From a virus (taxonomy: Duplodnaviria; Caudoviricetes), in the IMG/VR virus record IMGVR_UViG_3300010163_000002, positions 184,906 to 248,905 of that record: a stretch of DNA of 64,000 bases. The stretch is one strand, 5' to 3'. How positions within the stretch are numbered: position 1 is the first letter of the stretch; each line of letters starts with the position of its first letter. Below, one piece after another: positions 20,217 to 48,179 of this stretch. The position numbers and the translations under genes are program-made. The notes below the pieces were generated by a model. That model had not been told where the DNA came from, did no database searches, and worked only from the letters and a program-made list of their open reading frames with translations.

Positions 20217-20291
20217 ATTATAGCTAGAGATACATACTGGTAAATACCAAATACCAGTATTTATTAAAATCATTTTAAGGAGGATGCACAA

Positions 20292-20831
20292 ATGGCAAAC
20301 AGTGTAACAGAACTTGTACAGGAGATTAATGAAGCTAGAAAGAAGAAGACTTCTGCATCTAGCAAAGATGAAGTAAGAGTTATGAGAGCTATGGTTAATG
20401 ATCCGGAATTCGTTATTGATGTATACGGCGGCGATGGGGTAATTGGTCAGTTCTCCCCATGTGAGACAGCTCACAATATGGCGGCAAATATTATTAAAGG
20501 AGCGGCAAAAGTATCATCTAAGGAAGCAGAAGAGCTTGCAGCGAATTATGAATTCACAAAACAGGATGCGGAAGCACTTGTTTCTATCTCTAAAGAATTC
20601 ATTAATACGTATATCGAGACCGGTAGAAAGCTTCCGCTAGGCGGCAGAGAAACGTCAAACATTGCCATTGCCAAAAAGGTTAAAGAAGAAAGAAGTAATA
20701 GCTTTCCTAAGAAGGTTGGCGTTAACAGCGATGGATCTGATAAATACGAGTCTGTTAAAGATGGGGTTATTCCGTCTCATGGCAGTCTTAAGGTTTATTC
20801 ATCTTGCCCGTCTTGGGTAAAGAACAATTAA
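20292..20831 (+). CDS. Putative HU/IHF-like DNA-binding protein
   Basis: 'INTYIETGRKLPLGG...KKVKEER...IPSHGSLKV' resembles the HU helix/beta-arm layout; AAGGAGG RBS; late motif at 20231-20243. Confidence 0.5.
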   Translation: MANSVTELVQEINEARKKKTSASSKDEVRVMRAMVNDPEFVIDVYGGDGVIGQFSPCETAHNMAANIIKGAAKVSSKEAEELAANYEFTKQDAEALVSISKEFINTYIETGRKLPLGGRETSNIAIAKKVKEERSNSFPKKVGVNSDGSDKYESVKDGVIPSHGSLKVYSSCPSWVKNN

Positions 20832-20833
20832 GT

Positions 20834-20920
20834 AAAGATCTTGTTCATAAATTTCTCCTTTCATTAAAAAATGGGTGTGGGTGGTGATTAAGTTCACCAC
20901 CCATGCTTATTTGTTTTTTT
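20834..20920 (+). ncRNA. Candidate late antisense small RNA (anti-SD plus anti-AUG seed, terminator)
   Basis: AACA-ATTAAG-TAA at 20823-20835; GTTCATAAATTTCTCCTTTC tract; 17-bp hairpin at 20871-20910 followed by a U-tract. Confidence 0.5.
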
Positions 20921-20966
20921 ATCCATTTAACGTAGAATAGAACCTCACGTATATTTAAGCTCCTAA

Positions 20967-20979
20967 AACATAGTAGTAA
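20967..20979 (+). promoter_or_regulatory. Representative late promoter motif DACAW-N5-TAA (18 sites in window)
   Basis: Plus: 7394, 8502, 9862, 17576, 20231, 20823, 20967, 33653, 35541, 43247, 45796, 48261, 56752. Minus: 17520, 37630, 42707, 51977, 62320. Confidence 0.8.
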
Positions 20980-20999
20980 CTATAAAAATAGAAGGGAGG

Positions 21000-23900
21000 A
21001 TGAAGATAAAAATGAAACGTGTAAATAATTACATGAAAAATGTAATGAAATCTGTTACTTACGCTGCTGCCGATATTGCGTCGGATTATACACCTGGAAT
21101 GCAAGAACTGAAATCGTCCAATCAGGAATTTATTAAGAGCACATACGCTGCATTAAAAAATCCTAAAGCGGCTATTAAAAGATCAGTTGAAGCTATTCAG
21201 GAATCTAAAACATTTAAAGCTTTAGATTACGGTGCAAAGAACCTAGTTGAAGATCTTCGTACTGGTAATTTTTATAATAAAGAGCGTAAAGATCGTGATG
21301 AGTTAAGACTCTCGGGATTAGATTTCGACATGGACGACCTTTCACAATTCGGTATAGATGATGATTGGGAGTCAAAAGTAAATAATTCTTCGTCATCTTC
21401 TGATTCTGGCATTACTGCAGGGGATATGAGAATAGTTAACTCTATCGAAGGATCAAATGCAGCATTAGCCAGTGCAACAGTAAACGCAGTAATTAGAACA
21501 TCAAATAGTCAAATTAGAGCCGGTAGAGCTAATATGGGTATGATATACGTACAAAATGAAAAACTGTTTGGCGGACTTCATAATGATATTAGCATTTTAA
21601 ATAATACAATGAATGAAATGTATAAGATGCAAGCCGCATCTTTACAAAATATCGACAAAAACATGTCTAATTTTTTTACGTCTGAAGCTAAGCTTAGCGC
21701 CGAAAGAAATGCAATACTAAAAGAAATGCTTGAGATGCAAAGAAATCAGTATAAATCTGCAATTGATAAGGAAAGAGAATCAAAACTTAAAAAGACTAAT
21801 AAAGTACGTTGGAGCGATGTTAATGTCAACGGTATGGTTGATTTTGATGCTTACTTTAAAAATGTACAGAAAAATATATCAAACCAACTCTCTTCCATGA
21901 TTGGAATGGAGGGGTTTGGAGAAGACGGCAATTTATTGGCCACATTTATGACATCCCCTCTTGAGGGCGCTGTAAAGGCCGTTGTTAACGGAGTTATACC
22001 TGCAACTGTAAAAGCTGCAGCTAAAGAATTCGATGGTACCTTATCTGGTATATTTGGTACATTAATGGGTAAAATGGCAAACGCTAAATCAAATGACGAT
22101 GGAGGATTGCTAGGAATACTCTCTAAATTCCTGGGAATTAATACTGGTGTTAATAAATCTATTGATACTAGTAGGTATGAAAAAGGGCCTGTGCCATTTG
22201 ATGGAATTACTCGTAAGGCAATTATAGAAGTTATTCCTACATATTTAAGACGTATTGAAGCTGCTATATCTGGCAGACCAGAGCAGTTATTTGATTATAA
22301 ATCAGGCAAATGGACCAAGGGAGCAGATCTTAAAAAGCAATACGACGAAATTCATAAGAATGCTATTAAGTCTGGTACTTCTGAAGTAAGAGAAATGCTC
22401 AATCCTTCAATGGCAGCAATGAAGAATGGAGCTAAAAGTAGATCTGAAGCAGAAGCAATGGAAAAGGCATGGGATGAATTTTATCAGTTCCTTATGGACA
22501 ATAACGGTATATTCAATCCTAAAGTATCAGCCTTTAAGAATGGAGTTTCTTCCAGCACTTATCCTAATTTCTATAAATACTATAATGCTATAAGAAAAGC
22601 TTATGCCGAACAAGATGTTGTTGAACAGCGTGACAACACAGGTAAAGTTATTCGTTCTCGTAATACTAAGAATAGAGTAAGAATGCAATTAGCAGGAAAT
22701 GTTCTTAGTGCCAAAGAGAGAGAAGAACAGCAGTACAGGGATATAGAATTAGATCCTACAAGCCCATTTTATGCTCTGTTCAGCGGAATTAAGTTTGATG
22801 AGCATGGGAAATGGAAAGGTGATAATAAGAATTTTAAAGCATTCAATCGTTTATCAAACGAGAAAGATGAGCTTGGTAATAATATATTCAATTATCTTCA
22901 AAATATTAATAAAGAACTTACATGGGTGAGATTAAATTTGCCTAACATGACATTCAGCGCAGGAAGAGGTAGAAGAAAAGCTACTGATTCTGTTACAGGC
23001 ACAAGAGTTTCTTTTGATAGCATTAATCTTATGAATGCTTCATTGAAAAATGCTAACGATGCTGAATATAGAAATAAAAATAATGATGATGAAAAAATTA
23101 GAAGAGCTGCTCTTGAAAAAATTAAATCAGGTAAAGCTGTTGATTTAAGTGTATTCTCTGAAGATGAACAGGAATACTTGTTAGCTCTTGCTGAGTTAAT
23201 GAGGAATAGCTCTGCAGAAGAATACAAATCAGAACTTGAAGGATATAATGCTGGTGGCATATCCAGTTGGATGAATAAGAATGTATATAAAGCTAATATA
23301 AGAACTAGAAAAGATTTAGAAGAAGCTATAAGGAAAGCAAATAAAGAAGGAAAAAATATTGACGATGAAAAGATGGATCAGAAAGAAGAAAAATTCTTCC
23401 AGAAGATTATGAAAAGAGTCAATGCAGGAGGAGATATAATCGGAGGTGTAGTTGGAGCTGCAGCCGATTCATTCACGAATGTTCTTTATGCTGCTGATAA
23501 AGCTGTCTATGAAATGTTTTATAAAACAGAAATCCAAGACGAAGAAGATAAAACCAAATATAAAGGTTTTATGGATATGATGGCTCATAAAATGTCCGAT
23601 ACATTCAAAGATATTAAAGAAAAATTCAAGAAAGATATATTAGATCCATTTAAGGAACGTTTTGGAATCACAGAAGAAAATAAAAAACGTTTTAAAGAAG
23701 GCGCTATTAATACTCTTGGTAGTATATGGGGGGTATTTAAAGATTCTAATAAATCTATATATGGCCCTTTATTGGATAAAATGCGGGAAGGAGAATTCGA
23801 TTACGAGGAATATGGACGCCAGCAGTCCGAAGCTGCAAGAGCATTAACCAAAGAAGAGCGTGACCGCAGAAAAAATGTACGAAGAGGACTACATGTTTCT

Positions 23901-26900
23901 GATATAGCTACTTCAAAAATAACGAATAAAGATTTTGCTAGGGCTATATCTAATGGCACAAAGGAATGGGGAGCTATCACAACGAACTCTGTTGAAGCTA
24001 ATGATTCAAGACGAGTGAGAAACTTAGTTATTAGACGTGGCGGAGATGAACTTGAAGAATGGTGTAGAGCCAATGGTTTTACAGGAAGTCTTGATGAAAA
24101 GAAAGTACGACTTGGCAACGAATTTGGTTTACCTGCAACTGCATTAGCAAAAATTAAGACTGACGAGGATGCGAATTTAGTATTTGCTAAGCAGTATAGG
24201 CATAACGCTAAAGGTACATCTGGAAAACCATTTATGGGAATATCTGCACTTACTAAAGGCGAAGGCCTTCTTAGTAATCGTGGGTTTGGTGTGGTTCCTA
24301 AAACTGGTGTTTATAATGTAACAACTCCTACTCATATTATTAATACTGAAGATATGCATACATTATCCGGCGGTAAGGGCACTAGAGTATCTGTACAGCA
24401 GGCTCTTGGAAAAGAAAAGTTGGCTGCAAAGGCTGCTGGGTATAAGATTGCATCTCATGCTGGTGGTACTGGTATGAAAATCACTAATGATGGCGTTGAT
24501 ATAGATACCAATGCTATTATGAGCGAAGCTAAAAGATTTATACCTGAAGCTGCAGGTGGCGGCTTAGTTGGCGGTATTTTATCACTGGTATTAGGCTTAG
24601 CAGGAGGACCAATTCTTGGTGCTGCTGTAGGCGCAGCAGGCACTATCGTATCTAAATCTGATACATTGAAAGACATGTTATTCGGTAAAGCCGGAGAAGA
24701 TGGTAAAAGAGACGGCACTGGTATTGTTTCTAAAACTATCATGGATACAGTTAATAAATATGCTCCCGATGCTCTTAAATATGGTATGGCTGGAGTTATT
24801 CCTGGATTACTTACACCTCTTGGCCCTGTAGGAGGACTTCTCGTTGGTGGAGCAATTGGAGTATTAAAGAATAATGAAAAATTCACTAATAAATACTTTG
24901 GCGAAGAAGGAAAACTTACCATTGGTTCTAAGGAAAAGAAAATACTTGAGAAGATGTTTCCGGCTGCTGCTAAGGGAGCTGCGATTGGCACTATAGCAGG
25001 ATTCCTTTTACCAACACCGTTTGGATTCCTTGGTAACGCTATGTTTGGTAGCGCTATTGGGATGATGACTGCTACTGATGAATTTAAAGATCTTATACTT
25101 GGTAAAGAGATTAATGGTGAAAGATTTGGTGGTGTTCTTGGAGCGATTAAGGACGCACTAAATCCATTTACAAATTCATTAAAAAATGTTGGAGAAAAAT
25201 TATCTGACGCGTTTGAAGCAAATGTAATTAGCCCGTTGCAAAAATTCATTAAACCTGCAATACACGCCCTGCCAATAGCACTTGGAGCAGTACCAAGATT
25301 TCTTGGAAAGCAACTTGACAAACATACTCAGGGTATAAGACGTACTGTAGGTGGTAAAGTTAAAGACGTACTCGGAAGACCTGCTAAAATTGTTGCTGGT
25401 GGAATGGAAGCTGTAGCCGGTGGGGTAGGAAAAGTATTATCCGTACCTGGCAAAATTATAGGCGGGGCTGGTGATAAGTTAAGAGAATACGATATTAGAA
25501 ATGGCGATTTTGTAGATATGAATCAGGTTCAGGCTGTTGCTTGGATGGATTCTCACAAGAGAGGCGATAAAGTAAGTTCTACCCTTAGAGCATCATCAAA
25601 AGTTGGTTCCGGCGCAGATGACTCAATGACTGTTGAAGATGCTGAGGCAATGGCTAAATATCTTGATAGAATGAATGATTCAGAATCTACCGCACGTAAA
25701 AATCTGGATGCGAAAAATAAAGCATTAAATAATTTACTTGATAATTATACAACCAAAGATGGTACAAAACTTTCAAAGAAGCAGATTAATGGAATATTAG
25801 ATGCTGCTGACAGGAAAGAATTTGGAGACATATCTAGGATATTACAATCAGATGGAACGCTAACTAAAAGCGAATTTAACAAATTCATGGATGAAGGCGG
25901 CTTAAAGAAAGCCGTTATGGATGCTCATGATGCTAAATCTAGGCTTAAAAATATAACAGATATTGGAAGTACAGACGAAGCTGCAAAAGGCTTAAATGAA
26001 ATGCTAGAAAAATTTAATATTACTGATGACTTTGATTGGACTAATAAGAAAGAAAGAGCTAAGTTTTCAGCTCTTCTTAAAGATAGATTAGTTGAGCTTC
26101 AAGCTAATCCTGATGAAATTAAGGAAAAGCGAGAAGAAGAAGTAATGGAAGAAAATAATAAAAATATTATAACAATTACAGACAAAGTTTCTGCTATTGC
26201 TAAATTCTTTGAAGATATGACTAATATGAATAATGAAGCTACCAAAGATATTAATGAACAAACTCAAGCTAGCCTTGAAGCTGGGCAAAGGTTTATAAAT
26301 GGAAAGTACGATAAAAATATTGAAAGCGCTAAAAAAGATATGGGCAAAGATGAAGCTTCTAAACTTACTCCGGAAGGAGAAGATAGATTATCTTCTGAAA
26401 AAACATCTAACCGTGCATATAAATATACTGCTGATATCGTTAATAATGCTACTGGCGGTATGGGCAATTTCAATAAGGCTCAAGGGTTATTCAGAAAAGG
26501 AGCTACAGGAATACTTGGCGATCTAAGCAAAGCGTTTACTCCAGAAGGAGTTAAATATGTATCTAACTTATCCAAAACTAAACTTAAAACGTTTAATACT
26601 TGGGTAAATAAGAAATTTATCAAGAAAACTATTCTTAATGGTAAATTTAAAATAACTGATAAAACTGTTGAATTTATGACTAAAACTGTTAATAATAAAC
26701 AGCTATATGATAATTGTAGATTCCTTAGCCAGATTTATAATAAACCTACAGGTAAAGGCATTTATAGTAGATTCGAATCTCTTGAGGCTATAGGAATGCT
26801 TGATGACATAGCATTACAAGAATTGAGAGAGGAATTTGGGGTTAATGACTCTGATGCCACATCGTCATTTACAACAAATGCCGCTGGAGTAGCTGGTAGA

Positions 26901-29900
26901 ACTGCTAAGGGCGTTGCATGGGGAACCGGAGCTGTTGTAGGCGGTCTTGCAGGTGCGGGAAAAGAAATTGTATCAGGTACTGCGAAGACTGCTGGTAAAG
27001 GAGCAAGGTATGTTAGAGGAGCACGTTCTGATGAATGGTATTCTAAACATGCCCCTGCAGAAGAAGCTCAGCCTGAAGCAGAACAGAACGGCCTTGGTAC
27101 TTTACTTCTTAGCGGCGCAGGAAAACTAGCAAGTGGAACTCTCGGAAGCGTCGGTAACCTTGCTATGAACGGTATTGGAGCTGTTGGTAAGTTGGCCGGA
27201 GGACTACTAGGTGGTGTAGGAAAACTTGCTGGTGGTTTACTTGGATCTATATTCGGAAAGAATAAAAAAGATTCTGGAGACGAAAATTCATCTAAAGCAT
27301 TAGGAGCTATGGCAGGTTTACTTGGATTAAATAGCGCTAGTGCATCCTCACCAGTGTTGTCTAGCGGTGAAGGATTTGAAGAAACTGATAAAAAAGGTGA
27401 TGGTAAAGACGTAGTAAGTCTTGGCGATGGTATGTTTGGCCAGGTTAGACGAGATTCATCTGGCAATGTTGAGTTGGATGGATCAGATTCTGCTACTAAA
27501 AATGCCATGAACAAGATAGCACTAAAAGAAAAAGCTCAAGAAAAATTAAGAGATGCTCAATTAAAAGCATGCGAAATCATCAAGAGTAATTTTGATACAT
27601 CAGCTATCAAAGAATCTAAAGGTGGTAAAATAGGTTGGCTTGGATTGCTTCTTATGGGAGGATTACTTGCTAAAACTGGTGTGCTTAAGAAAATATATGA
27701 AGGAGTTATAGAACCTATATGGACTAATGGTATCAAACCTTGGGCCGAAAAAATATGGACTGAAAAACTCAAACCATTTTTAACAGAAGATGTGCCAAAC
27801 TGGATTATGAATACTGCTATTCCATGGCTTGGTAAAACTTTTGGTGGCATATTAAATACTGCAATACAAGGTTTACCTGCTATTTTAAGTGGCGGAGGGT
27901 CTGTAATTGGTGGTATTCTTGATTATGTAGTTGGAAATAAAAATAATGCTGGAGCAAGTACAAGCGGATCTATATCAAAAGATGCATATGATGGATCTTT
28001 GGTAGATGAAAATGGTAAAACTCTTAGTTATGACGATATAATTAATAAAAATTATAATACCGCTTATAATGAGCAAGGAGCTGAAGTGCAAATTGACGAG
28101 GACGGTAATTTTACTGTACAGGATGAATCTGTTAAGGGCAGTAATTATTTATCAGCACTTGGCAAGGGTGCAAGTAGAGCTTTTAACCTCGGAATGATGA
28201 GCGGCAAACAAAGTAAAATTATACAAGCCGCATCAAAAGTAACCGGATGGCTTGGTAAACATGGAACAACGCTTACGAAATTTGGTGGTAAAATAGGGAA
28301 TTTCTTCACCAAACCTCTTGAATTTGCTAATAAAAAAGGAGTTAATTTTAGTGAAAGATGGGGGAATTTTACAGATAGTATAATAGATAAGGCATTAGGA
28401 AAAAATACAGCAGAAGAAACAGCATTAGCTGTAATTGATAATGTCAGCGAACAGGCAGCAGATTCTGCTATAGGAAAAGCATTAAAAAATGGTGCTGAAG
28501 ATATAGCTCAGGAAGCTGTAGAAACAGCAACAAAGAAAGGTGTATTAGGCACTATCGGAGATTTCTTTAAGGGAGTCGGGTCAAAAATACAGCACGGCGC
28601 CGGTAAAGCACTCAATGCTCTGGTTGATGCTGTTAAAAAAGTAATTGATAAATTCTGCAATAGCTGGATAGTCAAAGATGCTTTAAGTAAAGTTGCTAAA
28701 ACTCTCAAAATCGACGACGTTACAGGTTATATTGCAAAATTCAGATCTAAAGCTAATGAAGTATTTGAAACTGCAGTAAAAAAAGCATGTGATAAACTAG
28801 GCGAAAATGCAGTAAAACAATTGGCAAAAACTGTTTTGGCTGCTGTAACTGCAGGTATTGATTTTACTGTAGCATTAGACCAGGCAGAATCAATTCTTGA
28901 AGTAAGAGAGACATCTTTTATGGAAGAATTAATTGCAGGTTTGATTAATACAGTTATAGGATTAATACCAGTGATAAACATGTTTTCAGATTGGATTATA
29001 AAACAATTATTCTCATTTTTCGGTGAAGACTATGATGTAAGACATGCTGAAGCCGAAGCATATGCGGAACAGTATAATGCAGAACATCAAACTACGTATT
29101 CTACAGCAGAAATTTTAAAATATCAGAATTCTGTTACTGGTAAAGTAGAAAAAGCTGTTGGAGACTTTGTTAAACCTATTGGAGATGCTGCAGTAGGAGC
29201 CGGTAAAGCAATATACAATGGTGGTAAAGCTGCTGTGGGGTGGATAGGTGATAGAGGAAAAGATATTGCCAACTTCTTTGGATGGGGCGGAGATGATGAA
29301 GTAGAGTCTAATGCCGAAGGTACAATGACCAAAGGATGGTTGAATACAACTACTATTTCTAAAAATCCAATACATAATTTATTTAATAAAGGATTAAAGG
29401 GATTGGCTAATATTATGGGAGATCCTATTAAAATCCTTGCAAACGCAAATGAATTTAAAACTTTAGATTCTATTATGGCTAAAGCTAAAGAAGGCAAGAT
29501 TTCAGTATTCTCTAAAGAATTCTGGAAAAATGATGACATCAAAGATAATTCCGTTGCAGGAATACTTAGAAATGTATTAAGTAAATTTACTAGATTTATG
29601 AGCGCTCCTATGCTTATGGTTAAGAGTTCTCTTGAATCATTGTATGATGATATTAATGTAGTTGGAAATGCTATGATTGGCAAAACTAATGCTGCTACAT
29701 CATCAAAATCAATTACATCTTCTAGCAAAGCTGTAACAACTTCACCATTAAAGAAATCTACTGGATTCTTATCTAAAGTTAAAACAACGTTTGGTAGCGC
29801 TGTTAGCAAGATCAAATCATTCTTTGGATTTGGTTCTGGTCCTGATTATCAGTATGGTACAGGAATGTATTCTAAACAGATTGATCCTGATGTTGCTGGT

Positions 29901-32900
29901 ATTAGATTCAATACATCATCTGATAGCGAGTATCAGACCATTGGTAATTCTGGTTGCGGCCCTGCGGCTGCTGTTAACGCATTAGAGTCTATATATGGGC
30001 GTGGTAATGCTGTTGCTGATGCCGCTAGATTCGCGCTTAACCATGGATATAAAGAAACAGACGGTGGTACAAAGCCTGGATTCTTTACTGATTACTTCAA
30101 TAGAAATGGTTTAGGAGCTCAGACTTCTTATAACAAGAGCCAAATTGAAAGAAATATTAATAGCGGTTTGCCTACAGTAATTATGGGTAGAAACGCTAAG
30201 GGCACGTCATCGGCATCTCCATTTGGAAGTACTCCTCATTATGTAACAGTAACTGGAACTGATGGTCATGGAAATGCTATTGTACAAGACCCTGAATCTA
30301 AATATGATAATCAGCTCTATCCTGTAAAGAGCCTTATGAAGAATACCTCATTAGGAGTTTCTGCATTTGGCAAACGGTATGGTATGGGTATGAGGCCTGA
30401 TAGATTTGCATACAAAAATAAACGTATAACTAGATGGGGTACAGGTAAGGGTACTATTATTTTTATAGGAGATTCTCGTACTGTTGGTATGAAGAGCGCC
30501 GTCGGTAACAATAGCCATATATGGTCTTGTAAGGTTGGTATGGGTCTTAACTGGATGAAATCTACTGGAGTTCCAGATGTAGAAAGTCAGATTGATTCTA
30601 ATAAGGCTGTAGTAATACTTATGGGAGTTAATGACTGTGATGGTAGCGCTTCTGCTAAGAGATATGCTGCTTATATAAATGATAAGGCCTCTGATTGGGT
30701 ATCTAAAGGGGCTGAGGTGTACTTTGTATCTATTAACCCTGTAGATGAAAGTAAATATCATGGTGCTGTAACAAATGCTAAGATAGACGAATTTAATAGT
30801 ACTATTAAGACTGCACTGTCTAGCAATGTAAAATATATTGATACAAATAGCCAAATTAAATCATCAATGTCTTCTTCTGACGGGCTGCATTATAATAATG
30901 CAACGTATAAGGAGATTTATAATATTATTACAAATGCTGTAGCTACAGGTGTATCAGCAAGCACCACTTTAACTTCGACAAGTAGTTCTACTTCTTCAAG
31001 CATCACTACATCTAATGCTAATGATAACTCCGCTCCTCAGACTCCAACTGTGGTAAGCATGTTTTCTGATATTCTTATGAATTCTAAAGCTGGTAAAGCT
31101 CTTGGATTATTTATAGGAACTTCAAATAATGATCAACAATCGTCTAATACTACTTCTAATAATACATCTTCAAGCTCTTCATCTTCCAGCACAAATAAAG
31201 GATCATTCCCTAAGTATGATCTTAATGATCAGCAGATTAAGGGTATTGCTAATATACTTCAGCATGAACAGCCAGGATTATCTGGTATGCTTGCGGAAGC
31301 TTCATTGATGGCCAATCTTACTGATATGGGTGGAGATGATAAAGCTACAACTGAAAATCTTGTTCGTAAAGCTACCTCAGGGTGGTTTGCTTACGGAAGT
31401 AGCAGATTTAATAATCCTGGCACTCCAAGTGCTGAAGCTATTAAAGCTGCAAAAGCCGTATTACTTAATGGTAAACGTACAGTACCTAGGTATGTAGATG
31501 AGCATGATTGCTTTAGCGATCTTTCTTCAGTTACAACCGATGGTAAATCAAATACTATATCTGATAGATCTGGTTATGTACAGCACAAAACCAAGATTAA
31601 TAACCGTTATGGTTCATCTTATACATTCTGGGGATTCCCGAATAGTGGAGCAGATCCATTTGGTTATACTAGCGATGCTAATCGTCAAAAATGGGGAGAT
31701 GATTGTTTCTCTGCAGAAGATGCGACATCCGGTCTTGGTAGATTTAAACGTAGAAAACATGGTAGAGGCAAATGGGGTAGAGGTACCGAAGATCAAATTT
31801 GGTATTACCTGAGACATACCGGTGGAATGACTGAAGAGGGCGCTGCTGGTCTTATGGGTAACCTTGAAGCAGAGTCTGGAATGAGACCAAACAATGCTGA
31901 AAATGGTTATGAGTATTTGACTGGTAACGATGAAGAATATACTAAAAAGATTGACTCTGGACAAGTATCAAGATTCCAGTTTGCACATCCTTGGGGAGAT
32001 AGCAGGCAGTGTGGTTATGGTCTTGCTCAATGGACTAGCGCTGGAAGAAAAGAAGGACTATATGATCTTGTTAAAGAACGTAATGTATCTATTGCCGATT
32101 TGAAAACTCAGCTTGATTGGCTTATGACGGAATTAAATAAATCATATGCCGGAGTATATTCAGTACTTAAATCAACAAATAGTTTACAAGCTGCATCGGA
32201 TAAAGTTCTTGGAGAATTTGAAATTCCTGCAAACTGGAGAAGCCAATCTGGAACTAGGGCAAGTATGGGGCAGAAATGGCTTAATAAGTTTAAAGGAACA
32301 GAAGGAGAGCAGTTAGGAGATTCTACTACCATGAACAATTCTTCTAGCGGCGATTCAGATTCTGAAACTACCCAACAGAATAGTAGTCCAACAATTATTG
32401 ATATGATGACCAATATCTTAGCAGAATCTAAAGTTGGTAAAGCGTTGCATGCATTTATCGGTGGAAATACTGGCGCTGCACCTTCAGGATCGGACAACAA
32501 TAGTTCAGGCTCTACAGCATCTGGGGACGCAGCGGAAGTAGTTAAGATAGCTAAGGAACAGGTTGGTATTAAGGAATCTCCTGTAAACGTATGTAAATAC
32601 AATGACTGGTATTATGGCCACCATGTAAATGGAGATGCATATCCATGGTGCGCAGCATTCACATCATGGGTAACAAATGAAGCTGGAGTACCTACAAGTA
32701 TTATGCCTAAAGACGCTTATACGGTAACAGCGTACCAGACTCTTGTTAATAGAGGAGGTAAAATATCTAACTCTGAAGCTAGACCTGGAGATATCATTTA
32801 CTTCACAAAGAATGGCGCTGCTAGTGGTATTTATCATACCGGTATTATTACAGACAATAGCAATGGCGTAATTAGTACTGTTGAAGGTAATAGTGGTAAT

Positions 32901-33605
32901 GCTGTAAAAGAGCATACATATAACGTTAGCAGTGGTAAAGTACTTTGTGCAAGGCCGCAATATAAAAATACAAGCAATAATACATCAACAACAACTTCTA
33001 CAACTACAAATAGTTCTGAAACCAAAACCGCCGGAGATGCTCCAGATGTATCTAATACCCGTGGCGGAAATGGTAATAAACCATTATCTAGATACGGCCA
33101 ATATAGAGATACTATCTATGGTAGAGGATCAGAAAGAAAAATTAAAAATAGAGGAGTTCCTAAACAGCATCTGTCTCGTGAAGGATACACTAAAGTTGAT
33201 GTATCTACATTTGATACCCAGCTTGGAAATGCACTTAAAACAGCAAACCGTCCTAAGGTGTATAAGTATGGTTCTGTTGGACTTGGTTCTGGCCCGGCAT
33301 ATGGTAAAGGAACTAGTCCGGATTATAGTAAACTAATTAATAGTATTATTAAAATCTTAATGACTATTGCAGATAATACTGATAAACTTAATATTATCGT
33401 ATCTATTCTCAATAATAAATTAGGGGCTAATATAACAGCATCTGATGTATCTGATCAAAATGCTAAACACGAAAGCTTAAAATCTAAATTAGCTAGTAGT
33501 TTAAATAACGTAGATTTATCTAAATTTAATAATGCAGCAGATCAAATTGGTGATAATTCGATTAATTCGATTATATCTGCCATGAATGCTATTGCATCTG
33601 AATAA
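21000..33605 (+). CDS. Giant tape-measure-like virion protein with C-terminal C39-like peptidase, SGNH hydrolase, SleB-like, phage tail lysozyme and CHAP domains
   Basis: 4201 aa, helical with Gly-rich hydrophobic blocks. 'GCGPAAA...HYV...DP' (about 29865-30365); 'FIGDS...GVND...DGLHY' (30455-30945); 'HEQ...AEASLMAN' (31205-31720); 'GNLEAESG...GYGLAQWT' (31790-32300); 'WCAAF...HTGI...EGN' (32535-32960). True start may be 21012; late motif at 20967-20979. Confidence 0.85.
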   Translation: MKIKMKRVNNYMKNVMKSVTYAAADIASDYTPGMQELKSSNQEFIKSTYAALKNPKAAIKRSVEAIQESKTFKALDYGAKNLVEDLRTGNFYNKERKDRDELRLSGLDFDMDDLSQFGIDDDWESKVNNSSSSSDSGITAGDMRIVNSIEGSNAALASATVNAVIRTSNSQIRAGRANMGMIYVQNEKLFGGLHNDISILNNTMNEMYKMQAASLQNIDKNMSNFFTSEAKLSAERNAILKEMLEMQRNQYKSAIDKERESKLKKTNKVRWSDVNVNGMVDFDAYFKNVQKNISNQLSSMIGMEGFGEDGNLLATFMTSPLEGAVKAVVNGVIPATVKAAAKEFDGTLSGIFGTLMGKMANAKSNDDGGLLGILSKFLGINTGVNKSIDTSRYEKGPVPFDGITRKAIIEVIPTYLRRIEAAISGRPEQLFDYKSGKWTKGADLKKQYDEIHKNAIKSGTSEVREMLNPSMAAMKNGAKSRSEAEAMEKAWDEFYQFLMDNNGIFNPKVSAFKNGVSSSTYPNFYKYYNAIRKAYAEQDVVEQRDNTGKVIRSRNTKNRVRMQLAGNVLSAKEREEQQYRDIELDPTSPFYALFSGIKFDEHGKWKGDNKNFKAFNRLSNEKDELGNNIFNYLQNINKELTWVRLNLPNMTFSAGRGRRKATDSVTGTRVSFDSINLMNASLKNANDAEYRNKNNDDEKIRRAALEKIKSGKAVDLSVFSEDEQEYLLALAELMRNSSAEEYKSELEGYNAGGISSWMNKNVYKANIRTRKDLEEAIRKANKEGKNIDDEKMDQKEEKFFQKIMKRVNAGGDIIGGVVGAAADSFTNVLYAADKAVYEMFYKTEIQDEEDKTKYKGFMDMMAHKMSDTFKDIKEKFKKDILDPFKERFGITEENKKRFKEGAINTLGSIWGVFKDSNKSIYGPLLDKMREGEFDYEEYGRQQSEAARALTKEERDRRKNVRRGLHVSDIATSKITNKDFARAISNGTKEWGAITTNSVEANDSRRVRNLVIRRGGDELEEWCRANGFTGSLDEKKVRLGNEFGLPATALAKIKTDEDANLVFAKQYRHNAKGTSGKPFMGISALTKGEGLLSNRGFGVVPKTGVYNVTTPTHIINTEDMHTLSGGKGTRVSVQQALGKEKLAAKAAGYKIASHAGGTGMKITNDGVDIDTNAIMSEAKRFIPEAAGGGLVGGILSLVLGLAGGPILGAAVGAAGTIVSKSDTLKDMLFGKAGEDGKRDGTGIVSKTIMDTVNKYAPDALKYGMAGVIPGLLTPLGPVGGLLVGGAIGVLKNNEKFTNKYFGEEGKLTIGSKEKKILEKMFPAAAKGAAIGTIAGFLLPTPFGFLGNAMFGSAIGMMTATDEFKDLILGKEINGERFGGVLGAIKDALNPFTNSLKNVGEKLSDAFEANVISPLQKFIKPAIHALPIALGAVPRFLGKQLDKHTQGIRRTVGGKVKDVLGRPAKIVAGGMEAVAGGVGKVLSVPGKIIGGAGDKLREYDIRNGDFVDMNQVQAVAWMDSHKRGDKVSSTLRASSKVGSGADDSMTVEDAEAMAKYLDRMNDSESTARKNLDAKNKALNNLLDNYTTKDGTKLSKKQINGILDAADRKEFGDISRILQSDGTLTKSEFNKFMDEGGLKKAVMDAHDAKSRLKNITDIGSTDEAAKGLNEMLEKFNITDDFDWTNKKERAKFSALLKDRLVELQANPDEIKEKREEEVMEENNKNIITITDKVSAIAKFFEDMTNMNNEATKDINEQTQASLEAGQRFINGKYDKNIESAKKDMGKDEASKLTPEGEDRLSSEKTSNRAYKYTADIVNNATGGMGNFNKAQGLFRKGATGILGDLSKAFTPEGVKYVSNLSKTKLKTFNTWVNKKFIKKTILNGKFKITDKTVEFMTKTVNNKQLYDNCRFLSQIYNKPTGKGIYSRFESLEAIGMLDDIALQELREEFGVNDSDATSSFTTNAAGVAGRTAKGVAWGTGAVVGGLAGAGKEIVSGTAKTAGKGARYVRGARSDEWYSKHAPAEEAQPEAEQNGLGTLLLSGAGKLASGTLGSVGNLAMNGIGAVGKLAGGLLGGVGKLAGGLLGSIFGKNKKDSGDENSSKALGAMAGLLGLNSASASSPVLSSGEGFEETDKKGDGKDVVSLGDGMFGQVRRDSSGNVELDGSDSATKNAMNKIALKEKAQEKLRDAQLKACEIIKSNFDTSAIKESKGGKIGWLGLLLMGGLLAKTGVLKKIYEGVIEPIWTNGIKPWAEKIWTEKLKPFLTEDVPNWIMNTAIPWLGKTFGGILNTAIQGLPAILSGGGSVIGGILDYVVGNKNNAGASTSGSISKDAYDGSLVDENGKTLSYDDIINKNYNTAYNEQGAEVQIDEDGNFTVQDESVKGSNYLSALGKGASRAFNLGMMSGKQSKIIQAASKVTGWLGKHGTTLTKFGGKIGNFFTKPLEFANKKGVNFSERWGNFTDSIIDKALGKNTAEETALAVIDNVSEQAADSAIGKALKNGAEDIAQEAVETATKKGVLGTIGDFFKGVGSKIQHGAGKALNALVDAVKKVIDKFCNSWIVKDALSKVAKTLKIDDVTGYIAKFRSKANEVFETAVKKACDKLGENAVKQLAKTVLAAVTAGIDFTVALDQAESILEVRETSFMEELIAGLINTVIGLIPVINMFSDWIIKQLFSFFGEDYDVRHAEAEAYAEQYNAEHQTTYSTAEILKYQNSVTGKVEKAVGDFVKPIGDAAVGAGKAIYNGGKAAVGWIGDRGKDIANFFGWGGDDEVESNAEGTMTKGWLNTTTISKNPIHNLFNKGLKGLANIMGDPIKILANANEFKTLDSIMAKAKEGKISVFSKEFWKNDDIKDNSVAGILRNVLSKFTRFMSAPMLMVKSSLESLYDDINVVGNAMIGKTNAATSSKSITSSSKAVTTSPLKKSTGFLSKVKTTFGSAVSKIKSFFGFGSGPDYQYGTGMYSKQIDPDVAGIRFNTSSDSEYQTIGNSGCGPAAAVNALESIYGRGNAVADAARFALNHGYKETDGGTKPGFFTDYFNRNGLGAQTSYNKSQIERNINSGLPTVIMGRNAKGTSSASPFGSTPHYVTVTGTDGHGNAIVQDPESKYDNQLYPVKSLMKNTSLGVSAFGKRYGMGMRPDRFAYKNKRITRWGTGKGTIIFIGDSRTVGMKSAVGNNSHIWSCKVGMGLNWMKSTGVPDVESQIDSNKAVVILMGVNDCDGSASAKRYAAYINDKASDWVSKGAEVYFVSINPVDESKYHGAVTNAKIDEFNSTIKTALSSNVKYIDTNSQIKSSMSSSDGLHYNNATYKEIYNIITNAVATGVSASTTLTSTSSSTSSSITTSNANDNSAPQTPTVVSMFSDILMNSKAGKALGLFIGTSNNDQQSSNTTSNNTSSSSSSSSTNKGSFPKYDLNDQQIKGIANILQHEQPGLSGMLAEASLMANLTDMGGDDKATTENLVRKATSGWFAYGSSRFNNPGTPSAEAIKAAKAVLLNGKRTVPRYVDEHDCFSDLSSVTTDGKSNTISDRSGYVQHKTKINNRYGSSYTFWGFPNSGADPFGYTSDANRQKWGDDCFSAEDATSGLGRFKRRKHGRGKWGRGTEDQIWYYLRHTGGMTEEGAAGLMGNLEAESGMRPNNAENGYEYLTGNDEEYTKKIDSGQVSRFQFAHPWGDSRQCGYGLAQWTSAGRKEGLYDLVKERNVSIADLKTQLDWLMTELNKSYAGVYSVLKSTNSLQAASDKVLGEFEIPANWRSQSGTRASMGQKWLNKFKGTEGEQLGDSTTMNNSSSGDSDSETTQQNSSPTIIDMMTNILAESKVGKALHAFIGGNTGAAPSGSDNNSSGSTASGDAAEVVKIAKEQVGIKESPVNVCKYNDWYYGHHVNGDAYPWCAAFTSWVTNEAGVPTSIMPKDAYTVTAYQTLVNRGGKISNSEARPGDIIYFTKNGAASGIYHTGIITDNSNGVISTVEGNSGNAVKEHTYNVSSGKVLCARPQYKNTSNNTSTTTSTTTNSSETKTAGDAPDVSNTRGGNGNKPLSRYGQYRDTIYGRGSERKIKNRGVPKQHLSREGYTKVDVSTFDTQLGNALKTANRPKVYKYGSVGLGSGPAYGKGTSPDYSKLINSIIKILMTIADNTDKLNIIVSILNNKLGANITASDVSDQNAKHESLKSKLASSLNNVDLSKFNNAADQIGDNSINSIISAMNAIASE

Positions 33606-33652: not shown

Positions 33653-33683
33653 AACAATTAAGTAAATTTTAGGAGGTGGTTTA

Positions 33684-47129: not shown

Positions 47130-48179
47130 ATGATTTTCGCAGAAGCAACATCTGGACAGATGTCCTATGAAAACATCAATGAGAGCCCGTACGATCTTGG
47201 CATCGGCGGAGCTCTTATGCATGTATATGAGAACGAGTGCAACTACAACGCAATTATGAAGGCTGCAGCTATCAGCGAGATGCGCTATTACAACGAGACT
47301 GGCGGAGACCTGTTTGTTCAGGAAGCAGGAGCGCTCAGCGGATTCTTTGAGAAGGTTAAAGCATTCTTCAAGAAAGTTATCGAGAAGATTAAGTCCATCT
47401 TCAAGAAATTCGTTGCAAAGATCAACCAGTTTACCATGAAGGATAAGGACTTCGTTAAGAAGTATCGTGATCAGATCGCAAGAAAGAACCTTACTGATTT
47501 TGAATTTGATGGGTACAAGTTCGCTGGTAATCTTGCAGGTAAACTTAATCTGACTGTACCGGCAAATACTCTTATCGCTGGGGTAGACCATACAAAGGAT
47601 TCTGATGCTATCAACGATGTATGCGAAACTAATCGTGGTAAAATTATTGATGGCAAAGTAGCGCTTACAGAATCTGAATTTAGAGATGAGTTGCGTGAAG
47701 TTCTTTATGGTGATAAAGAAAGCTTCAAACCATCTATCAGGGACGAGTTTGATTTCATTGATAACACTCAGAAGGCGATCAAAGAAAATGAAAAAACCCA
47801 GAAAGATACGATTAAAATTATTGAAGATATCATCAAGGATATTGACAAAAATATTAAAACTCTGTCTAGCAAAAAGGCAGGTGACACAAAATTATCTACT
47901 CCAAATAAATATGGCGTAAGTTCGGGAGAACTTAGCTCCAAATATACTGATAATGAATCTGCAGATAATGCTACTAAAGCAGCAACAAACAGAGTAACTG
48001 TTTACAAATCCTTCTCTAATGACCTTACCGTAGCATTCGGCGCTGTATCTAAGGCTATTGTTGATCGTAACCGTCAGGCTAAGGCTATCTGTGTTAAGGC
48101 GCTGTCCTACAAGCATGAGAGTGCGACTGTATATGGCGGCGGAGCAGATGATATCTTTGCTAACGTTCAGATTGTTTAA
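47130..48179 (+). CDS. Internal head protein, paralogue 2
   Basis: 'VQEA-GALSGFFEKVKAFFKKVIEKIKSIFKKF...KDKDFVKKY'; leader AATTAAAATAAGGAGGAAATAA is identical to that of paralogue 1. Confidence 0.65.
   Translation: MIFAEATSGQMSYENINESPYDLGIGGALMHVYENECNYNAIMKAAAISEMRYYNETGGDLFVQEAGALSGFFEKVKAFFKKVIEKIKSIFKKFVAKINQFTMKDKDFVKKYRDQIARKNLTDFEFDGYKFAGNLAGKLNLTVPANTLIAGVDHTKDSDAINDVCETNRGKIIDGKVALTESEFRDELREVLYGDKESFKPSIRDEFDFIDNTQKAIKENEKTQKDTIKIIEDIIKDIDKNIKTLSSKKAGDTKLSTPNKYGVSSGELSSKYTDNESADNATKAATNRVTVYKSFSNDLTVAFGAVSKAIVDRNRQAKAICVKALSYKHESATVYGGGADDIFANVQIV

Follow-up and report, generated by a model that had tools for sequence, protein, structure and literature searches.

The last 64 kb of the 248,905-bp genome of an uncultured jumbo phage, a relative of Bacillus phage AR9 (IMG/VR record IMGVR_UViG_3300010163_000002, positions 184,906 to 248,905; this whole stretch of DNA is called the window below, and positions refer to it unless stated otherwise) contain a short gene-free unit between a gene for a 179-amino-acid (aa) protein and the gene for a giant virion protein. 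The reading that we favor, although we hold it tentatively, is that this unit is a conserved anti-Shine-Dalgarno (anti-SD) element, that it is probably also made as an RNA of 87 nucleotides (nt) late in infection, and that the ribosome site of the giant gene is its only candidate partner.

In outline, an unpaired pyrimidine tract that copies the anti-SD sequence of the ribosome (CUCCUUUC), followed by a strong intrinsic terminator, would constitute a conserved RNA element at the 3' end of the 179-aa gene, just upstream of the late promoter of the giant gene. Every transcript of the 179-aa gene would carry the element as its 3' untranslated region (UTR). Most likely, this phage would in addition transcribe the element separately and late, using its non-virion RNA polymerase and an AACA-N6-TA promoter word with its start at 20834, to give an RNA of about 87 nt whose terminator is also that of the 179-aa mRNA. 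The most likely action would be pairing with purine-rich Shine-Dalgarno (SD) regions, such that binding of the 30S subunit is blocked, and the giant-gene site could be paired within one and the same read-through RNA (in cis), by a separate RNA (in trans), or in both ways. The features of the unit are as follows:

20823 to 20834, plus strand: AR9-type late-promoter word (AACAATTAAGTA) that spans the stop codon of the 179-aa gene; predicted start at the A at 20834
20834 to 20920, plus strand: predicted 87-nt RNA without an open reading frame (ORF); 35 unpaired nt, then the terminator
20843 to 20848, plus strand: GTTCAT, the proposed 'anti-AUG'; conserved only in lineages L014/L015
20852 to 20864, plus strand: anti-SD tract UUUCUCCUUUCAU; nine of 14 related lineages have a CCUU-core tract in this place
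20869 to 20920, plus strand: intrinsic terminator; 19-pair hairpin (20869 to 20912), then G and U7
33653 to 33666, plus strand: second exact copy of the 14-mer that begins at 20823; 18 nt upstream of a virion structural gene (33684)

The tract and its terminator

The original prediction, made from the letters of the window, had described a late small RNA with an ORF-less body, a single-stranded 5' half, and a hairpin followed by a U-tract, and the sequence features behind it have stood up. No credible ORF was found in 20832-20920, and the 5' 35 nt of the predicted RNA are unpaired in the computed fold. The hairpin proved to be longer than the 17 bp first given: it has 19 pairs (seven of them G-C) and a 6-nt loop, is followed by GTTTTTTT, and folds with -29.5 kcal/mol (z = -5.4), a value reached by none of 200 shuffles. 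A run of six A residues 5' of the hairpin makes the structure terminator-like on the minus strand as well. The stop codon and the hairpin are separated by a spacer of 37 nt that contains GATCTTGTTCATAAATTTCTCCTTTCAT (20837-20864) and no credible ORF, an unusual distance considering that the terminators of the genome (58 predictions) mostly begin 0-16 nt past the stop codon.

The sequence CUCCUUUC within the tract is that of the 3' tail of Firmicute 16S rRNA, and the ribosome-binding sites (RBSs) of the phage are of the Firmicute type. Intergenic DNA of the genome holds 27 orphan heptamers of the form YCTCCYY, nearly all of which are hairpin arms or loops, or mirrors of the RBS of a gene missed by the crude gene caller; the heptamer at 20857 is almost the sole unpaired case on the sense strand. 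The UUAAUU loop of the hairpin was considered as a conserved mark of a special RNA and rejected, since many terminators of the genome share it. A search of Rfam gave no family above threshold for the unit. The L20 leader (RF00558) was discarded as a candidate at 24.2 bits, against a gathering threshold of 58.7, with 44 structured positions skipped and an alignment made up of AU-rich sequence plus the terminator.

How does the unit fare in related phages? Relatives were gathered with the 179-aa protein and with the giant protein, and there are 14 lineages in which the giant gene follows. A pyrimidine tract with a CCUU core precedes the first hairpin in nine of these (the window, L011, L013, L003, L014/L015, L016, L023, L034/L035 and L070/L071). 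The hairpin stems are wholly different among lineages, and therefore neutral sequence has turned over between them while the tract recurs. The conservation that the original prediction asked about is thus partial: it extends to the tract and, in some lineages, to the promoter word, but among the relatives only L014/L015 retain GTTCAT and its spacing. Part of the 5' half in the window (CAUAAAUUUCUCCUUUCAUU) also resembles the start of a second unit in L016 (GAUAAAUUCUCUUUUCAUUG).

Four of the nine tract-bearing lineages (the window, L013, L014/L015 and L016) have a word of the form AACA-N6-TR shortly ahead of the tract, as against 0.39 expected from how often the word occurs in 462 kb of DNA from relatives (Poisson P = 7e-4, or about 0.007 if L014 and L016 are counted once). 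Both L014 and L016 have the order gene, tract, first hairpin, promoter word, tract, second hairpin with U run, and giant-gene promoter, and therefore the second unit in these lineages stands alone between two hairpins.

The late promoter word and look-alike RNAs of AR9

The source genome has direct terminal repeats and a G+C content of 33%. It encodes two beta-like and two beta'-like RNA polymerase proteins (two PF00562 and two PF00623 matches, respectively), which is the arrangement of AR9 and phiKZ; like the source phage, AR9 has two multisubunit RNA polymerases. The mapped late promoters of AR9 follow the consensus AACA-(6N)-TA/G, in which the last base is the transcription start (Lavysh et al. 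2017, PMC5312081). The word at 20823 agrees with this consensus, with AACA at -11 to -8, T at -1 and A at +1, and it has 11 of 12 bases in common with the mapped late promoter of AR9 g213 (AACAATTAAATA).

The source genome holds 175 copies of AACA-N6-TA. Of these, 49 are intergenic (intergenic DNA being 8% of the genome), and 25 lie 14-35 nt ahead of start codons, including those of virion genes; the copies at 20967 and 33653 are among these 25. Considering this enrichment in intergenic and start-proximal DNA, the two polymerase sets, and the identity of the consensus with that of AR9, we take the promoter class to be real: judged by its distribution, AACA-N6-TA behaves as an AR9-type late promoter class in this phage.

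Whether the individual copy at 20823 is a promoter is a separate matter, and several observations weigh against it. The genome has 126 copies of AACA-N6-TA inside genes. With a matrix built from the 25 gene-proximal sites, the 20823 copy scores 8.9 and ranks 79th in the genome, and most matches at that rank lie within genes. Its context, TAAAG-AACA, is without the C-rich -5 to -2 positions and the A before AACA that are typical of the gene-proximal promoters of the phage. The original prediction had rightly pointed to a 14-mer, AACAATTAAGTAAA, with two exact copies (20823-20836 and 33653-33666), and to the overlap of the first copy with the stop codon TAA (20829-20831) of the upstream gene. 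The identity by itself is within chance, however (three matches at two or fewer mismatches versus 2.9 expected), and nine of the 14 bases of the 20823 copy are dictated by the codons AAC AAT TAA, the last codons and the stop of the ORF at 20292-20831. Because of the matrix rank, the missing C-rich context and the codon-set bases, a promoter at 20823 is plausible, not assured, from the genome alone.

The mapped promoters of AR9 are themselves without a C-rich context, and GAACA contexts are common among them. In the source phage, the gene-proximal late promoters have C-rich sequence at -5 to -2, ahead of AACA (CCTGAAACA, CTCCTAAAACA), with examples in the window at 20962-20966, 42708 and 43247; this sequence could serve as a promoter element or as a local anti-SD.

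Transcription of AR9 has been mapped, and strong termination was seen at predicted terminators; 13 late promoters lie within ORFs and seven drive antisense RNA (PMC5312081). Two of the late starts of AR9, 75478(-) and 115851(+), are intergenic, with no ORF in the AR9 record. They are listed only as 'antisense', with no function given, and the step height is 278 at 115851(+) and 3757 at 75478(-), the latter exceeding every other value in the Table S3 rows examined (PMC5312081). The corresponding RNAs, 84 and 87 nt long, read A-AUG-UCCUCC-UG... and AAUAAAAUAAA-CCCCUC-AA..., and in both the anti-SD word is unpaired and is followed by a hairpin of 14-16 pairs and a U-rich tail. The window unit and the two AR9 units are therefore built alike: an AACA-N6-TA promoter, no ORF, a length of 84-87 nt, an unpaired anti-SD near the 5' end, a hairpin and a U-rich tail. 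The AR9 units differ in lying on the strand opposite to their neighbors, in other gene neighborhoods, and in having no sequence homology to the window unit. The window unit, for its part, is nested in the 3' end of a gene with which it has a common terminator, and its start is predicted whereas the AR9 starts are mapped.

Other known RNAs invite comparison in other respects. Bacterial 3'-UTR small RNAs with an internal promoter, such as DapZ and MicL, are products of the host RNA polymerase, require Hfq and act on defined targets. The window unit resembles them in having a promoter word in or at the end of the upstream ORF, a terminator shared with the mRNA and a single-stranded 5' seed, but it differs in its predicted phage polymerase promoter and in the generic anti-SD nature of its seed. 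The Firmicute small RNAs RsaE/RoxS and RNAIII use C/U-rich seeds to mask SD sequences, and the proposed window RNA would work by the same mechanism, with an unpaired pyrimidine seed on the SD and 30S binding blocked. It has no sequence or structural homology to these RNAs, however, and would be a phage late product rather than a member of a host regulon. By analogy, then, the unit resembles the two AR9 late RNAs most closely in build, 3'-UTR small RNAs in layout, and Firmicute C/U-seed small RNAs in proposed action. What distinguishes it is that it is nested in the 3' end of a gene beside a giant lysin-bearing gene.

Perhaps the unit is one member of a general system of AR9-like jumbo phages, in which several late RNAs made by phage polymerases expose copies of the 16S anti-SD. 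We think this broader proposal unlikely as it stands, but if it were true, the RNAs would act together to reprogramme translation, covering ribosome sites on host mRNAs or on outdated phage mRNAs. The literature searched gave no account of small anti-SD RNAs from jumbo phages equipped with their own polymerases. To our knowledge, very little has been learned about the regulatory RNAs of strictly lytic phages, and less still about those of jumbo phages that encode their own RNA polymerases. If the RNA is real and acts on ribosome sites, it would be a phage-made layer of translational control beside the polymerase switch; if real, it could also be put to a direct test, given how tractable AR9 and Bacillus subtilis are.

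Pairing partners and rival explanations

The question posed by the locus itself is how the phage avoids a mistimed or mis-dosed wall-degrading virion protein of 4,197 aa. The features of the giant gene that bear on this question are:

20967 to 20978, plus strand: late promoter of the giant gene (AACATAGTAGTA); predicted start at 20978, matrix rank eighth in the genome
20991 to 21014, plus strand: giant-gene ribosome site; SD GAAGGGAGGA (20991-21000), start codon at 21012
21012 to 33605, plus strand: gene for the 4,197-aa virion protein, with C39-like peptidase, GDSL/SGNH, tail lysozyme and CHAP domains in the C-terminal half

Two ATGs, at 21000 and 21012, are in frame with the giant gene. The second was taken as the start, for a protein of 4,197 rather than 4,201 aa, because the first ATG in L011 directly precedes a stop codon.

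The original prediction had seen in the 5' half of the RNA a ready-made, trans-acting guide, in which anti-SD, spacer and anti-AUG together match the start of a single phage or host mRNA beginning GGAGAAATTTATGAACAAG. While the late small RNA as such drew support from the AR9-type promoters of the phage and from a unit with promoter word, open 5' half and terminator, the idea of a guide for one mRNA did not, and we consider it improbable. It is true that the minus strand reads as a well-spaced initiation region (SD, 6 nt, ATG), but to call the 5' half its reverse complement merely restates the presence of an RBS-like word on that strand. Within the 249-kb genome, the only zero-mismatch copy of the complementary start region is the element itself; the next best has three mismatches and lies antisense to genes. 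No exact copy of the 22-mer was found in viral contigs. Among 185,579 genomes there was one exact match, 23 nt long, where an ABC-2 permease gene (MNKIKTII...) has its SD and start, on contig CAYZIQ010000009.1 (L010:6273-6294) of a high-GC Chloroflexi metagenome-assembled genome. By a rough estimate, about one such match is expected by chance, and a high-GC genome of this kind is an unlikely host for a phage with 33% GC and Firmicute-type RBSs; the permease gene was therefore judged a chance match and rejected as a target. The lack of conservation of GTTCAT and its spacing also speaks against a guide of this design.

The same minus-strand word raises the question of whether the functional unit is not an RNA at all but a micro-ORF, encoding MNKIFT, or a 21-codon frame (MKGEIYEQ...). 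The strand reads GGAG, 6 nt, and then ATG AAC AAG ATC TTT ACT TAA, a good SD and spacing before the ATG at 20848. In agreement with the original prediction, however, no promoter-like site was found on the minus strand in 20865-21000. Moreover, the hairpin and UUUUUU would end transcripts just before the SD, and the relatives have neither a start codon nor a conserved frame at this place. Since a promoter and conservation are both missing and a terminator lies directly upstream, the micro-ORF was rejected, and we would be very surprised to see it return.

If there is no single dedicated mRNA, what would the tract pair with? Duplex energies against all 257 ribosome sites of the phage gave no outlier (best -25.1, mean -13.7, standard deviation 3.5), and predicted pairing did not differ between the late-promoter genes and the rest (P = 0.84). 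The arrangement of the locus is more informative. In the minimum-energy fold of the window intergenic region, 20853-20862 pairs with 20991-21000 (10 bp) and 20838-20842 with 21003-21007 (5 bp), so that the earlier statement that the window holds no target is correct as regards an outstanding duplex but overlooks the adjoining giant-gene site. When the whole region is folded, the tract and SD arms pair in the window and in each of the five tract-bearing relatives so treated. The cognate giant-gene site falls within the top 26% of 220 ribosome sites in seven of seven lineages, and the tract pairs better than shuffled tracts. The ribosome site of the 179-aa gene itself was also considered as a partner and rejected; it never ranked above 85th of 220 in the seven lineages, which places it in the weaker two-thirds, and it was below the median in six of them. 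In L070, a perfect 11-nt inverted repeat (UUAUUCCUCCU / AGGAGGAAUAA) flanks the terminator and promoter, and in L003 a 29-nt, 76% repeat spans the whole leader including the giant-gene ribosome site. For the window, the predicted probability that the SD is unpaired is 0.87 in the promoter-started RNA, 0.10 in read-through RNA, and 0.19 in read-through RNA with the tract shuffled. Position and partial co-variation thus suggest the giant-gene ribosome site, and no other, as a partner.

A number of results weigh against the account as a whole. As a trans target, the giant-gene ribosome site ranks only 65th of the 257. A 9 x 9 cross-matching test of co-variation between tract and giant gene gave P = 0.085, a trend only, with the window pair fifth of nine. 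Shuffling the tract barely alters the predicted masking of the SD in the long RNA, with a clear dependence only in L013, and the strong terminator (19 pairs, U7) sits between the tract and the giant-gene ribosome site. The tract is missing in five of the 14 lineages (L030, in spite of 73% protein identity, L033, L058, L019 and L006). Finally, the promoter word is missing in five of the nine lineages that have the tract (L011, L003, L023, L034 and L070), where the tract would therefore exist only as a 3' UTR.

Considering this last point, it is reasonable to ask whether the element acts in cis alone. Sequestration of an RBS has precedents in the T4 genes e, soc, 49 and I-TevI (PMC3014915). As in the gene e type of arrangement, the anti-SD in the window lies upstream of a late promoter and the SD downstream (tract at 20853-20862, promoter at 20967, SD at 20991-21000), and the regulated gene encodes a wall-degrading protein. 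In a fail-safe of this kind, the word at 20823 would be silent and the tract would act only on 179-aa transcripts that read through the terminator, masking the giant-gene SD, such that the lysin-bearing protein is translated only from RNA started at 20978, between the arms. Silencing of read-through RNA is attractive because the giant protein carries wall-degrading domains (lysozyme and CHAP). It would also fit with the occurrence of the tract in nine lineages but of the promoter word ahead of it in only four, with a giant-gene late promoter that in each case separates the tract from the ribosome site, with the pairing of the arms in all six tract-bearing regions folded, and with the L070 and L003 repeats around terminator and promoter. 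However, the T4 arms form a local hairpin without an internal terminator, whereas the arms in the window enclose a 19-pair terminator with U7, are separated by about 130 nt, and have an extra promoter word upstream of the anti-SD. The shuffle control, in addition, predicts a paired site in the long RNA with or without the tract, and the 179-aa gene, with its likely TACA promoter (see below), is probably not early, so that the timing logic is lost. The enriched promoter word and the stand-alone units in L014 and L016 would be left unexplained. On balance, an action confined to cis seems unlikely to us, though it deserves to be taken seriously.

The simplest alternative is an ordinary 3' UTR with its terminator, in which the promoter word and the minus-strand RBS-like word arose by chance from AT-rich sequence and the codons AAC AAT TAA, and in which the tract has no function. 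The abundance of AACA-N6-TA within genes, the low matrix rank of the 20823 site and the chance-level 14-mer match all fit with this possibility, as do the five lineages without the tract and the failure to find a target. It is difficult to see, however, why a functionless tract would recur in nine lineages in spite of a full turnover of the stems, and the 37-nt spacer, the enrichment of the promoter word and the mapped AR9 starts on look-alike units all argue against chance. We therefore give an ordinary 3' UTR only a minor share of the likelihood, and continue to favor a conserved anti-SD element from which, we infer, a late RNA is transcribed starting at 20834.

The upstream gene and other units of the genome

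Two features lie upstream of the element:

20231 to 20242, plus strand: TACA-N6-TA word (TACATACTGGTA), 50 nt ahead of the 179-aa gene
20292 to 20831, plus strand: gene for the 179-aa protein, function unassigned; conserved, with family members on over 50 jumbo-phage contigs (150-285 kb)

The 179-aa protein family has an invariant SKEFINTY..TGRKL block. The original prediction had called the gene HU-like, and this identification did not survive closer inspection. The protein has no Pfam or PHROG family, a profile search of the PDB found no relative (HU included), and there was no fold match, the best Foldseek hit having an E value of 0.98 on a model with a mean pLDDT of 65. The HU and IHF chains gave Foldseek E values above 2 and TM scores below 0.15 against this model, and an HU/IHF identity was rejected on the combined Pfam, PHROG, PDB profile and Foldseek results. 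Among 50,697 deposited phage records no relative of the protein was found, and a DNA search of deposited phages gave no match.

The word TACA-N6-TA, which differs from the late consensus by a single base, is found 43-83 nt upstream of the homologous gene in no fewer than eight lineages (the window, L011, L016, L023, L030, L033, L034 and L003). The copy at 20231 is likely a variant promoter of the 179-aa gene, and the word may mark a variant or a separate temporal class of promoter. Because this likely AACA-like promoter is conserved in at least eight lineages, the 179-aa gene is unlikely to be early.

Three further observations concern the genome outside the window (positions are those of the genome). 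A second gene-free unit is found at 47370-47478 (+) between two minus-strand genes (L029:1871-1978; AACATTGTTATA). It has a 12-pair 5' hairpin, an unpaired CCUCC tract (CCUCCAAG), and a strong terminator with a GAAA loop and U tail (97 nt, z = -6.0). The only other long-spacer terminator, 74 nt past the stop codon, is at 24633-24722 (-) (L028:1626-1723). This stretch holds AACAGTTTTATA and AUCCUUCC and lies between a gene for a helix-turn-helix (HTH) regulator and a DHH phosphoesterase gene, with the SD of the latter directly 3' of the hairpin; it may be a structured 5' leader. Finally, a near-identical terminator hairpin around GTAGGGATTTCTCCCTAC, or its GAAATC mirror, occurs at no fewer than six sites (about 47449, 91222, 100948, 101465, 139712 and 183610), and these look like a dispersed family of repeated hairpins.

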